Positions 5,563-34,485 are shown, counted from the stretch's first letter. The stretch is DNA of 64,000 bases from Gammaproteobacteria bacterium (GCA_965222155.1 CBDCTH010000012.1:2976001-3040000); one strand, 5' to 3'. Notes: a model not told the origin generated them from the sequence alone. Program-made: numbers and translations.

Positions 5563-6036
5563 ATGTTTGTCGCCGCGTTTCTGTTATTTGTCGTCCTGAA
5601 TGAACCGCACCAGTTTTCCATGCTCGATCTCTGGGAGAAAAAATGCAGGGACGGTGATGTCGAGGCCTGTCAGCGGTTTGAGGATGCCCAGGCTGGCGTC
5701 AGGAAGCTGGAGCGACTGGATGGACTGGCCTTGCGCTATGGAGAGAACGCGAACCGGGACGAACTGGAAACAGACGGCAGACCCCTGCTGAATTTGGCCT
5801 ACAAACAGGTGATGGAAGACTTTATCGAAGCCGAACATAATCTGGGCAACAAGGAACTGAACTATGACGATGCCGCCGTCAGTTACTGCGCCGACCATTT
5901 TCATGATTACTGGATAAACAGAAAATTATGGTGGCCTACCGACGACAACGGGGATCCAAGCTGGACGGATATTTATTATTACATCGTCGACCACTACTAC
6001 GGCATCTGTCTGCGGCGCTATTTCAACCAGCTTTAA
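5563..6036 (+). CDS. Hypothetical membrane-anchored protein
   Basis: 157-aa ORF directly after hppA, hydrophobic N-terminus, 4 Cys, no recognised motif. Confidence 0.6.
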   Translation: MFVAAFLLFVVLNEPHQFSMLDLWEKKCRDGDVEACQRFEDAQAGVRKLERLDGLALRYGENANRDELETDGRPLLNLAYKQVMEDFIEAEHNLGNKELNYDDAAVSYCADHFHDYWINRKLWWPTDDNGDPSWTDIYYYIVDHYYGICLRRYFNQL

Positions 6037-6140
6037 TCCACTTATTCCACGCGCTGCGGTTAACAACATGTACACGTGCCATAAACCGCTCTGCGGCGTC
6101 AAGTCGATCTAACCCGGATTTTTCATATATGGTTCGCCCC

Positions 6141-6430
6141 GGTATTGCAAGCACAATGTTCGCATTGACAAAGTGGGCATTGCAGCCCTATATCCGACCT
6201 CTTGATTGCGGGTCATTACGCCCGCGGGCCCCGATGGACTACGCGCCGTTGTGTCCTTATCACCAGGCCGGCTGTCACAGTGTGCGCCAGTGAGACATTC
6301 AGGGTCCCACAACGGCAGGGTTGCCTTGTTTGCCATCACGTTCATGTCGCTGCGCAATGCTTGGACGGTGTGTCCACTATCTGTTTATCCCGTTCAGTCT
6401 GTGAGTCATTCAATGTTAACCGGCAGGCGC
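6141..6430 (-). ncRNA. Predicted bridge RNA / seekRNA region of the IS1111 element
   Basis: A 9-bp stem (6245-6253 / 6308-6316) encloses an internal loop. Its strands (6290-6297 and 6260-6270) match opposite strands of the insertion target. A second stem-loop lies at about 6180-6244. Transcript ends unknown. Confidence 0.75.
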
Positions 6431-7507
6431 TCAGGCGGCCGCTTCCACGTGGTCGGCCTGGTACCTCTCCTGCTTCACCAACAAGGCATACGCCGTGCGC
6501 GCCATGCGATTAGCCAGGGCGACCGCCGCCACATTCTTATGTCGGCGTCTTAACACATCTTGCACCCAGCGACTGCGCTTATCGGTTTTCTTGTCCGACA
6601 CCCGCAACACCGCACGGGCACCGTGTATCAGTAAACTGCGCACGTAACTGTCACCCCGTTTACTGATCCCCAACAACTGCTCACGCCCCCCGGTCGACTG
6701 CTGCCGCGGCACCAACCCCAACCAGGCCGCCAACTCCCGACCATGACGGAATGTCCGCACATCCCCCACCGCTGCCAATAACGCGGTCGCCGTGATCGGC
6801 CCGATGCCCGGCATGCTCATCAATCGCTGCGCCTGCTCATCGGTCTTGGCCCAGTGCGCAATCTGTGCCTCCAACGCCTCAATACGCGCATCCAATTGCA
6901 CCAGCGCCTCATACAAACCCTGTAGCAACGCCCGGAACGGGATACTCAACCCATTCTCGCCATCGTCCAGTATCTCAGGCAGCTTTGCCCGCACCCGGGT
7001 ACGACCCTGGCCTATCTCCACCCCCTGCTCCGCCAACAACCCGCGTACCTGATTCACCAACGCCGTGCGCTGACCCACCGCCAACGAGCGCACCCGATGG
7101 ATGCTCTGCTGGTCCTGTTGCACCGTCGTCTTCACCCCCACAAACCGCATCGTCGGCCGTTGCACCGCCTCACACACCGCCTCCGCATCCGCCCGGTCAC
7201 GCTTGTTCGACTTCACATACGCCTTCACAAACTGCGGCGCCATCAACTTCACCTCGTGACCCTACCCGCGCAACACCCGCGCCCAGTGATGCGCCCGACC
7301 GCACGCCTCCAGCCCCACCCGACACGGCGGCAACTGCGCCAGCACCGCATTGAACTTCTCAGGTTTGTACTTCCCCGTCAAACGCACCTTCCCACTGGCG
7401 TCCTGTCCACAAACCTCTATCCAGGTCTTGCCCAGGTCAACACCCACGACCGTTATCGTTGTCTCTTGCTCTGCTGTATTCATCCGTTTGTTGCTATACT
7501 GACTCAT
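6431..7507 (-). pseudogene. IS110-family DEDD recombinase/transposase with one in-frame TAG at 7262-7264
   Basis: ORFs 7262..7507 and 6431..7252 are in the same frame (RVLRG*GHEVKLMAPQFVK). GVDLGK, GLEAC, KRDRAD, PGIGPITA, QQSTGG and ISKRGD are all present. Confidence 0.88.
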
Positions 7508-7823
7508 GGTTCGCTCCTCCTACTGTTAATGAAAAAACTTCATTATGGCTCATTAAAGCCGAATGTATAAGTGAGGGGCGAACCATTCCATTACCAGGCC
7601 GCTAGTAGCTATCGGATACATGTTTGCTGTCAATGAGTCATGGTAATCTATTGACAATGTCATCATTACATACTGCGCTTGATGCGCCCTCGCTTGTCTT
7701 TTTGCCGCCAACGGGCACGTGCTCCCTCAACCAGAGCTACGGCTATGCTTTCGGTCGCAGGCACCCGCTGGCGGCAAAAATCCTGCGCGATCATCGCATC
7801 AACTGGTGAGATATGCGGGCTAA

Positions 7824-9071
7824 GTGAACTTTTGGAAATCCTTTGGGCCAGGTATCCTCTTCGCCGGCGCGGCGATTGGAACCTCGCATCTCGTTCAGTC
7901 CACCCGAGCCGGCGCGATGTTTGGTCTGGGTCTGTTAACAGTCGTTATCGTCGCCAATCTTATTAAATACCCGGCGTACCGCTTCGGTCCGCTGTATGCC
8001 GTGATCACCGGCCGGTCGTTGATTGAAGGCTACCACGGCCTTGGCCGGTGGGTGTTGATTTTGTATATCGCAAGCGAGTTCGCTGTCATCGCTATCGTCA
8101 TTGCCGCAACGGCAATAGTGACTGCCGCAATCTTACTGGCTGTAAGCAGTGCTGCGGTTGATGCAAGATATGTCGGCGTCGCATTGATTATTGCGGGCAC
8201 TTCCGTGCTCGTAATCGGCGGCTATAACCTGTTGGATAAATTGACCAAAGTCTTCGTGCTGATTTTCACGTTGGCGACGTTCGTCGCAACGCTTTTATCG
8301 TTGCCTCGTATCGACTGGTCGTTGTCTCAATTCGCGTTACCGGGCATGGATATCCAAACTTTCGCATTTGTCATCGCATTGATGGGCTTCATGCCGTCGG
8401 GTATGGAACTGTCGGTTGTACAGTCACTCTGGTGCGTGGCGAAAAGCCGGGCCAGCGGCAGGCGACTACCGTTGTCGCATGTGCTGACGGACTTCAATAT
8501 CGGCTATGTCGGATCTGCGCTTCTCGCCGTGTGTTTTCTGCTGATGGGCGCAGGCGTGATGTATGCAGACGGTATCGTTCCGGAAACCCGGGCGGCGGGA
8601 TTCGCGAACCAGGTTATCGCTTTGTACACGGCAACCCTGGGAGGCTGGGCCGGTACCGTGGTAGGCGTCTCGGCATTGTTAGTTATGTTCACAACTTTGA
8701 TCACCGTTCTCGATGGAATGCCGCGTCTCGTTGCTGCCGGGATCGTTGCGCTTCGAAGCCGCGCTCAAACCGGCGCTGAAAACCTGGACCGCTCGCCCAT
8801 ACTTTTCGGCAGCATGGCCGTACTTGCCATTGCAGGCATGATCGTCCTGCTGTTTTTCATGAACAGTTTTCAGACATTCATCGACTTTGTAACGATTTCT
8901 GCGTTCATCGTCGCTCCAATAACCGCATTGCTGAATCATCTCGTGATTATTTCGGATGATGTGCCTGCTGAGCAGCGGCCGCATAAAGCGATGCTGAGCT
9001 GGAGTCTGCTTGGTATTCTCGCACTGTCCGGTCTGGCAATTGCTTTTCTCTATTGGAGATTTCTCGGATGA
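7824..9071 (+). CDS. NRAMP-like / APC-superfamily permease (putative divalent metal transporter)
   Basis: GPGILFAGAAIGTSHLVQSTRAGA N-terminal motif; about 11 TM segments. Confidence 0.75.
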   Translation: MNFWKSFGPGILFAGAAIGTSHLVQSTRAGAMFGLGLLTVVIVANLIKYPAYRFGPLYAVITGRSLIEGYHGLGRWVLILYIASEFAVIAIVIAATAIVTAAILLAVSSAAVDARYVGVALIIAGTSVLVIGGYNLLDKLTKVFVLIFTLATFVATLLSLPRIDWSLSQFALPGMDIQTFAFVIALMGFMPSGMELSVVQSLWCVAKSRASGRRLPLSHVLTDFNIGYVGSALLAVCFLLMGAGVMYADGIVPETRAAGFANQVIALYTATLGGWAGTVVGVSALLVMFTTLITVLDGMPRLVAAGIVALRSRAQTGAENLDRSPILFGSMAVLAIAGMIVLLFFMNSFQTFIDFVTISAFIVAPITALLNHLVIISDDVPAEQRPHKAMLSWSLLGILALSGLAIAFLYWRFLG

Positions 9072-33901: not shown

Positions 33902-33905
33902 CTAG

Positions 33906-34239
33906 CCCGGATTTCTCACCAGGTGATGCGATGATCGCGCCGGATTTTTGATGTGCGCCTTCCATGGCGCACACCCTGCGGGCATCCTGCGGATGTCCAA
34001 ATCTGCTCCTGGCAGATTTGTGCCGCCAGCGGGTGCCGGAGCCTGCCCCGTACTTGATACGGGGACCGAAAGCATAGCCGTAGTTCTGGTTGAGGGAGCA
34101 CGTGCCCGCTGGCGGCAAAAAGACAAGCGAGGGCGCATCCAGCGCAGTGGGTGATGGCAACAGAATGCTATAATCCTGATAACTCATTGACAGCAAGGTA
34201 CTTTCCGCTAATGACAAGCGAATTGGTGAGATATGCGGG
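33906..34239. mobile_element. MITE family A, copy 2 (334 bp, with nested palindromic modules)
   Basis: Ends CCCGGATTTCTCACCA / TGGTGAGATATGCGGG; CTAG duplication (33902-33905, 34240-34243); homologous to 7594-7819. Confidence 0.85.
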
Positions 34240-34485
34240 CTAGGGAAGCGACCCGGACGGGGCCGACGGATTGATGCCGTGGGGTTTGATCAAGCCGGTG
34301 GCGAAACCGATGAACAAGAGGATAAACAGGGCGATGGACAGGACGATCCTGAGCGTGAGTGACTTTACTGTCCGGTCACTTTTGCCCTTGTCCCGGACCA
34401 GGAAAATCAGGCCTGACGCCAGGGAGATCAGGATGATTGCCAATAGTAAAATGATGGCTATTTTGAATATTGCCGCACCGCTCAT
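34240..34485 (-). CDS. Twin transmembrane helix small protein (DUF2909-like)
   Basis: SLASGLIFLVRD, SLTLRIVLS, GLIKPH; usual antisense position between coxC and surf1. Confidence 0.85.
   Translation of the reverse strand: MSGAAIFKIAIILLLAIILISLASGLIFLVRDKGKSDRTVKSLTLRIVLSIALFILLFIGFATGLIKPHGINPSAPSGSLP

Follow-up and report, generated by a model that had tools for sequence, protein, structure and literature searches.

An IS1111-type insertion sequence, predicted to be RNA-guided, recurs at the terminal repeat of an IS1380-derived miniature transposon in a gammaproteobacterial genus

Introduction

Insertion sequences (ISs) of the IS1111 family have 11-13 bp subterminal inverted repeats, left and right terminal extensions of 7 (or 6) nt and 3 nt, respectively, a long non-coding region downstream of the gene, a GL-P----S/TG motif, and a promoter at the circle junction, according to the family traits laid out in Siddiquee et al. 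2024 (PMC11187229). In the same account, the seekRNA of such elements carries a top-strand-complementary block 5' of a bottom-strand block, the two overlapping at the cut; ISEc11/ISXne4 exemplify natural retargeting through block replacement; and REP (repetitive extragenic palindromic) sequences and attC are among the known targets (PMC11187229). Here, we describe a 1468-bp IS1111-type element in a 64,000-nucleotide stretch of DNA from a Gammaproteobacteria bacterium (GCA_965222155.1, CBDCTH010000012.1:2976001-3040000; the window). The element lies within the terminal inverted repeat (TIR) of a miniature inverted-repeat transposable element (MITE) that derives from an IS1380-family element, and we consider it highly probable that it is RNA-guided, programmed against that end, and has homed there repeatedly.

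The pairing of an IS1111-type element with a MITE or transposon end has precedents in QMITE2 and in Tn21 ends. The original prediction for this locus, made from the sequence of the window, cited REPs, attC sites, and Tn21 inverted repeats as targets of IS1111 members, in agreement with PMC11187229 and with work cited in PMC11208160. According to that cited work, IS4321 and IS5075 target the terminal repeats of the Tn21 family (PMC11208160). Like the element described here, they are IS1111-type, have subterminal repeats, and insert in an oriented manner at a fixed site in the terminal repeat of another element. Unlike them, the present element is hosted by a high-copy MITE and the ends of its IS1380-family IS rather than by a Tn3-family transposon, and neither the IS nor the target sequences are related to those here. 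In Coxiella burnetii RSA 493, 20/21 copies of IS1111, the founding member of the family, lie in the MITE family QMITE2 (PMC5896051). There, however, the IS targets an internal GTAG palindrome of the MITE instead of its terminal repeat, and guide-target matching was not part of that study (PMC5896051).

Two further comparisons bear on the guide and on the derivatives of the element. ISEc11/ISXne4, ISKpn4, ISPst6, and ISPa11 (PMC11187229) share with it a downstream guide of ~80 nt, two blocks in the same order that overlap at the cut, 7/3-nt extensions, and retargeting by block replacement. Their RNAs, however, were shown biochemically, whereas the RNA here is predicted only, and their targets (a linear site, attC, REP) are different ones. 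ISPpu9 likewise uses an abundant intergenic repeat (REP) as a safe landing site and has short derivative modules beside its full copies (PMC12288879). By architecture it belongs to another IS110 subgroup, its Ssr9 RNA is not required for transposition (PMC12288879), and the short right-end modules of the present element are known from sequence alone. Among titles and abstract openings of papers on IS1111 with MITE targets or IS1380, none described an IS1111-type element in IS1380-type ends.

Results

An IS1111-family element splits the left terminal repeat of a MITE

The features of the locus are listed below in window coordinates, with a vertical bar in a sequence marking the insertion point.

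6109-6112, no strand: CTAA, left copy of the 4-bp MITE target duplication, identical to CTAA at 7820-7823
6113-6125, plus: outermost 13 nt of the MITE terminal repeat that the IS splits (CCCGGATTTTTCA), aligning with the ends of six intact copies
6126-7593, minus: IS1111-type element, 1468 bp
6126-6140, minus: IS right end, comprising the extension ATA (6126-6128) and the 12-bp subterminal repeat GGGGCGAACCAT (6129-6140)
6143-6148, minus: TTGCAA, candidate -35 element of a putative promoter
6244-6318, minus: predicted seekRNA/bridge-RNA core, with the basal stem CUGCCGUUGUG / CACAACGGCG around both guide blocks
6260-6268, minus: B block (GCCUG, then a constant GUGA), which reads in the sense of the left flank and cut site (GCCTGG|TGA)
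6290-6300, minus: T block GAAUGUCUCAC, the complement of the right flank's top strand (ideal partner G|TGAGACATTC)
6431-7507, minus: 358-codon DEDD transposase gene, interrupted in frame by TAG at 7262-7264
7575-7593, minus: IS left end, comprising the subterminal repeat ATGGTTCGCCCC (7575-7586) and the 7-nt extension TAATGGA (7587-7593)
7594-7819, plus: remainder of MITE copy 1, whose opposite end (7803-7819) is unoccupied
7820-7823, no strand: CTAA, right copy of the MITE target duplication
33906-34239, plus: MITE copy 2, 334 bp, with neither end occupied, bordered by CTAG at 33902-33905 and at 34240-34243

The element is the sole full copy in the genome from which the window comes (G000). 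MITE copy 1 is 239 bp long, with a left TIR of CCCGGATTTTTCA|CCAGG.. and a right TIR that reads CCCGCATATCTCACCAG as its reverse complement. The outer 13 nt of the left TIR are followed by the IS, and the MITE resumes from CCAGG at 7594. Excising 6126-7593 in silico leaves 239 bp with CTAA flanks that align to six intact MITE copies without a gap at the junction. Therefore, the IS insertion made no duplication of its own, and its placement in the original prediction, 13 bp inside the left TIR with the CTAA...CTAA duplication restored on removal, was correct. The IS boundaries were set by this alignment, and the cut position is ambiguous by 1 nt. Two coordinates given earlier had to be revised: the flanks of the second MITE copy are the CTAG tetramers listed above, and the stop codon in the transposase gene lies at 7262-7264.

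The segment is a member of the IS1111 family (within IS110 sensu ISfinder). Its 12-bp subterminal repeats, ATGGTTCGCCCC and GGGGCGAACCAT, form a perfect inverted match, and the terminal extensions are asymmetric, the left one (7 nt) being longer than the right one (3 nt). The non-coding DNA amounts to 305 nt 3' of the transposase gene (6126-6430) versus 86 nt 5' of it. The transposase matches DEDD_Tnp_IS110 (PF01548, E 7.8e-15) and Transposase_20 (PF02371, E 2.6e-27) in Pfam, as well as the NCBIfam model NF033542, “IS110 family RNA-guided transposase” (E 2e-104; the score of 349 bits exceeds the cut-off of 140). The GL-P----S/TG motif is present in the translation as GLVPRQQSTG. When the two IS ends are abutted in silico, as in a circle, TTGCAA is followed by a 17-nt spacer and a TATAAT that spans the junction, so that a promoter would form there. 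The circle-junction joint itself was absent from the matches listed in public-run contigs.

The right CTAA of the MITE runs directly into a 415-codon open reading frame (ORF) for a membrane protein, whose GTG start is predicted at 7824, and the composite insertion replaces the immediate upstream region of this ORF. An orthologous empty site was sought in the genus through this downstream gene; only 73%-identical fragments were found, with no usable orthologue.

The host MITE family derives from an IS1380-family element

MITE copy 2 lies in inverted orientation relative to copy 1 and is uninterrupted. The window contains three unoccupied ends with the guide-matching core, as had been claimed: tttctcaccagg at 33912-33923, tatctcaccag at 7813-7803 (minus), and tatctcacca at 34233-34224 (minus). 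Genome-wide, G000 contains 236 ends with ≤3 substitutions relative to the 17-nt end, and 162 of these follow CTAG, TTAG, TTAA, or CTAA. G000 has 120 exact occurrences of the motif CCCGSATWTCTCACCA and none when the pattern is read backwards, and the motif is present in 21/23 genomes of our genus sample (23 genomes); the MITE family is therefore old and genus-wide.

Pairing of ends in G000 gave 81 elements, with modal sizes of 220-259 and 300-339 bp. Identical 4-bp flanks border 33/81 pairs, among them the non-palindromic pairs TTAG/TTAG (6), CTAA/CTAA (1), and ATAG/ATAG (1), which points to a 4-bp YTAR target duplication for the family. IS1380 elements make 4-5-bp target duplications. The same ends are found on two 1768-bp elements (C4:218571-220338 and C12:1242097-1243864) and on a 1641-bp element (C12:3474028-3475668), which start with CCCGCATATCTCAC or CCCGGATATCTCACCAAT and whose transposase belongs to the IS1380 family (NF033539, E 6.5e-90; PF13701, E 2e-116). 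Judged by these shared ends, the MITE is a derivative of an IS1380-family element present in G000.

The original prediction had proposed a parasite-of-parasite pairing with an unrecognized MITE family. The pairing stands; the MITE is no longer unrecognized, as its ends are common to the IS1380-family elements of G000. The autonomous transposase with these TIRs, a proposed follow-up, could thus be assigned to a family, but its ORFs in G000 appear broken: the longest spans 409 codons, with the rest in another frame. The MITE family may therefore be without an active transposase source in this genome.

Compared to copy 1, MITE copy 2 contains ~75 extra bases (..gatgtgcgccttccatggcgcacaccctgcggg.., window 33950-34030) that include a palindrome. 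These bases recur separately in G000 (matches to copy 2 positions 44-117), and the segment may be a second small repeat nested in MITE copy 2.

Two variable blocks downstream of the transposase gene track the flanks

The genus sample contains three full relatives of the IS that are 78-80% identical to it, one in G002 and two in G008 (G008a and G008b). Outside the genus, transposase relatives in genome contigs reach at best 56% protein identity, with none close; in metagenome contigs, the best segments are mostly at 37-50%, with one 55-residue match at 58% and again none close. We aligned the 3' regions of the four full copies and one relic, and chose the blocks for comparison after the alignment was viewed. 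Two short blocks differ between copies, and their surroundings are conserved. Block T (GAAUGUCU in the G000 copy, with a constant CAC after it) corresponds to the right flank read as its reverse complement, and block B (GCCUG in the G000 copy, followed by a constant GUGAUAAGGACAC) has the sense of the left flank. T lies 5' of B, and both overlap on the target at G|TGA.

Blocks and flanks co-vary. Block B matches its cognate flank at 5 of 5 positions in the G000 copy, 3 in G002, 4 in G008a, and 4 in G008b, versus 0-2 for non-cognate flanks; the corresponding values for block T are 3, 4, 5, and 3, versus 0-4. This amounts to 31/40 cognate positions, compared to ~1.2-1.6 of 5 for non-cognate pairs. 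The retargeted copies G002 and G008b alone have 14/20 cognate matches (binomial P 3e-5 at p=0.25).

These data bear on an alternative, which we regard as quite improbable, in which the site is chosen by the recombinase protein or by the DNA structure of the end repeat, and the matches in the 3' region are coincidental or have another role. The G|TGA part of the match is constant in all four copies and in all targets and could be a protein-read core, and the guide RNA is a prediction. However, the variable blocks track the flanks in G002 and G008b, whose transposases are 75-76% identical, and the order and overlap of the blocks fit the experimentally reprogrammed ISEc11 system (PMC11187229).

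The programs of the individual copies correspond to different end variants. The occupied MITE end has the form ..TTTTTCACCAGG, and ..TTTCTCACCAGG and ..TATCTCACCAAT are other variants. The UCUCAC block (reverse complement of 6290-6297) pairs with GTGAGA of the empty ends and has one mismatch to the occupied GTGAAA; hence the guide does fit the empty ends better than the occupied one, as was originally noticed. The G000 copy fits CCCGGATTTCTCACCAGG (..TTTCTCACCAGG), the most frequent end form in G000. The blocks of G008a, AUUGG and UAUCUCAC, fit the end subtype CCCGAATATCTCACCAAT (..TATCTCACCAAT), which has 26 matches at ≤1 mismatch in G008, versus only 4 for the G000-type motif in that genome.

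In a consensus fold of five sequences, both blocks are unpaired between the conserved basal stem CUGCCGUUGUG / CACAACGGCG and inner stems, with compensatory changes in 6/60 pairs. By analogy with ISEc11, ISKpn4, and ISPa11, we infer that the predicted RNA would be made and would guide the recombinase.

A separate segment of the 3' region drew our attention. At window 6182-6195 (minus), the G000 copy reads GGAUAUAGGG, whereas all relatives and relics read GGAUAUAUGG, which is complementary to the IS right end CCATATAT. The divergent GGAUAUAGGG may be a second lesion in the assembled copy, located in a possible donor-recognition segment. We considered GGAUAUAUGG as a donor-binding block, but the G000 copy differs there, and we make no claim for it.

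The same insertion point is used repeatedly across the genus

Besides the full copy, G000 contains three right-end relics, of which relic A is 80% identical to that copy. A census of the genus yielded 21 full copies, partial copies, and relics, and 13/21 of these rows adjoin the outer 13 nt of a MITE end (TGAGAWATNCGGG, then a YTAR-like tetramer). They comprise the G000 copy and two G000 relics, G008a, two rows in G006, three in G003, and four more in G008. After collapsing the tandem rows with shared flanks in G003/G008 and three identical left-end relics (G015, G022), 16 distinct loci are left, of which 10 adjoin the MITE end, in the four genomes G000, G003, G006, and G008. Thus, most copies and relics lie inside MITE-type TIRs, by rows as well as by loci, the opposite of what would have refuted the original prediction. 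Orientation is uniform: in 12/12 rows that adjoin the MITE end via the right junction, it is the right end of the IS that looks toward the outer 13 nt. The 13th row, a left relic in G006, was recognized from its left flank.

We then scanned G000 with the 13-mer defined by the guide. At ≤1 mismatch there are 55 sites, of which 46 were flagged by our script as lying in MITE ends (45 after removal of one apparently false flag). At ≤2 mismatches there are 261 sites, versus 28-196 for 20 shuffled 13-mers. Together with the census, these counts support the earlier proposal that an RNA-guided IS is programmed to target the terminal repeat of a MITE family residing in the same genome.

A chance single insertion into a MITE, given that MITEs fill much of the intergenic space, could be imagined from the single full IS copy in G000. 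We consider this highly improbable, as the same nucleotide and orientation recur in 13/21 rows over four genomes, and the near-matches to the guide concentrate in MITE ends.

Common descent is a second way to obtain a shared junction: a single ancestral insertion into a MITE end could have been copied to other loci, either because the IS1380 transposase mobilized the composite or because the DNA was duplicated. Most relics retain only the IS right end and the outer 13 nt of the MITE end, a unit that is movable in principle, and one locus common to G003 and G008 is tandemly duplicated. However, the outer 13-mers beside the IS vary from locus to locus as free MITE ends do (tgaaaaatccggg, tgagaaatgcggg, tgagatattcggg), and the G000 copy and relic A have diverged to the 80% identity given above. 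Furthermore, the guide blocks of the G000 copy and of G008a differ in step with the end subtype that each occupies, and the two copies with other blocks sit in other sequences. A split end would also be unlikely to serve as a good substrate for the IS1380 transposase. We therefore rate descent from one insertion as improbable, and prefer repeated, guided insertion.

Copies and relics outside the MITE end and short right-end modules

The rows outside the MITE end are the full copies in G002 and G008b, a truncated copy in G004, three rows of relics in G015 and G022, a relic in G016, and relic C of G000. The full copies in G002 and G008b have other guide blocks, which match their own flanks. G008b (L016, G008:C2:482581-484051) sits in a hairpin, ATTCCCG|TGAAAACGGGAAT. 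The right half of this hairpin (16 nt) occurs 119 times in G008, 68 times in G003, and 0 times in G000 at ≤1 mismatch, and many of these repeats lie in tandem arrays with a period of ~125 bp.

Six short right-end relics (L007, L008, L011, L022, L026, and L041, from G006, G003, G016, and G008) start within ~7 nt of TGGCTGCAATG, the foot of the last hairpin ahead of the right subterminal repeat. In G006, a ~70-nt piece of the IS has both MITE flanks intact. Boundaries clustered in this way suggest one of three origins: the relics are mini-elements, excision took place alternatively at GGATATA|TGG, an internal look-alike, or deletions are frequent at this spot.

Relic C (G000 C12:193165-193229) consists of the last 50 nt of the IS (98% identical), then TGGTGATAAGGACAC, then TTAG. 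The 15-mer TGGTGATAAGGACAC is the constant segment right after the B block of the G000 copy (window 6251-6265, minus) and is otherwise absent from G000. Copies of an inverted repeat of unrelated sequence (GGGGACACGATACTTAATT..) truncate relic C on its left side. We ruled out the 15-nt flank as the end of a second MITE family because relic C and the IS itself account for all of its occurrences. Targeting by the guide of its own coding DNA is a poor fit, as the junction is 3 nt off the expected cut.

The assembled copy is disrupted, and public contigs suggest other alleles

The in-frame TAG at 7262-7264 occupies a codon that encodes Tyr in the three full-length relatives. The assembled copy is therefore a recent pseudogene and is probably not autonomous. 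Contigs from runs X1 and X3 have A for C at 7262, which changes TAG to TAT (Tyr); none were found in X2. X1 and X2, which belong to one study, each contain a single contig in which 6124 is connected straight to 7593, so that exactly 1468 bp are missing; the shorter arm of this joint spans 30 letters. None of the public runs listed is registered as RNA. Contig word depths, which we do not take as copy numbers, are 228.5 of 507 (X1) and 8.15 of 39 (X3) for the Tyr allele, and 47.9 and 75.9 for the IS-free joint versus ~140-280 for its flanks. Because the closest paralogue in G000 matches only 17 nt to the left of the IS-free joint, we interpret the joint as this same MITE copy without its IS, a form that could be a product of precise excision or an older allele. 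These data suggest that an intact Tyr allele and an IS-free form of the MITE are present in the sampled population. In run X4, from another organism, a contig joins 6110 to 7823 with one letter between, a related locus without MITE or IS.

Discussion

We propose that an RNA-guided IS1111-type element is programmed against the end of an IS1380-derived MITE and homes there repeatedly. In the proposed mechanism, the IS would move as a circle, as IS1111-family elements do, and be inserted by its DEDD recombinase, which would be guided by a short RNA (seekRNA/bridge RNA) from the non-coding region downstream of the transposase gene. The two programmable blocks would together spell CCTGG|TGAGA.AT, corresponding to nt 6 to nt 18 of the MITE terminal inverted repeat. 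The element would then insert between nt 13 and 14 of MITE ends, in a single orientation and without duplication. The MITE ends would supply many neutral landing sites, and it is plausible that each insertion disables the MITE end that it splits.

Several points weigh against this proposal. With regard to the guide, the seekRNA/bridge RNA stays predicted: a single-sequence fold of the guide region is no more stable than shuffles (z 0.11), and an Rfam scan of 5900-8000 at E up to 1 gave no family match. The co-variation draws on four full copies and one relic, with blocks defined post hoc. At right-flank position 6, the guide has G versus A (a mismatch) or T (a wobble) in all end variants; the T block mismatches the occupied site at two positions; and none of the 1407 sites in G000 at ≤3 mismatches to the guide-defined 13-mer is a perfect match. 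With regard to the census, 8/21 rows (6/16 loci) lie outside this MITE end, BLAST sees the MITE body on the other side in only 3 rows, and most short relics are tied to the MITE solely by the 13-nt outer end and a YTAR-like tetramer. The IS-free joint is one short contig per run with 90% likeness in repeat-rich DNA, and the runs are possibly the source of the assembly itself. Lastly, G000 has ~45 near-perfect empty ends, yet only one full, nonsense-bearing copy and three relics; therefore, the IS is not spreading in the assembled genome now.

A broader picture can be drawn, which we offer with considerably more doubt than belief. This IS1111 lineage might be a hyperparasite that tracks the variants of IS1380/MITE ends host by host (..TTTCTCACCAGG for the G000 copy, ..TATCTCACCAAT in G008), also jumping to other abundant repeats and retiring MITE copies, with guide and end co-evolving. 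The short right-end modules, and the right end fused to the guide-coding 15-mer, might then be footprints of side reactions, namely, alternative excision or non-autonomous mini-elements.

The locus reveals no new mechanism and is a further member of a known behavior. It adds a well-resolved natural case to the few RNA-guided ISs for which guide and target can both be read from sequence. The useful extra is a retargeting series within one genus: four close copies hold three programs, two directed to subtypes of one transposon end, one to another abundant repeat, and one to a unique site. Such a natural series shows which guide positions may change, and the distribution of its targets indicates that this IS clade tends to land in other mobile or repeated DNA. 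If insertion disables MITE ends, this pair would offer a simple setting in which to study how two layers of selfish DNA come into conflict.

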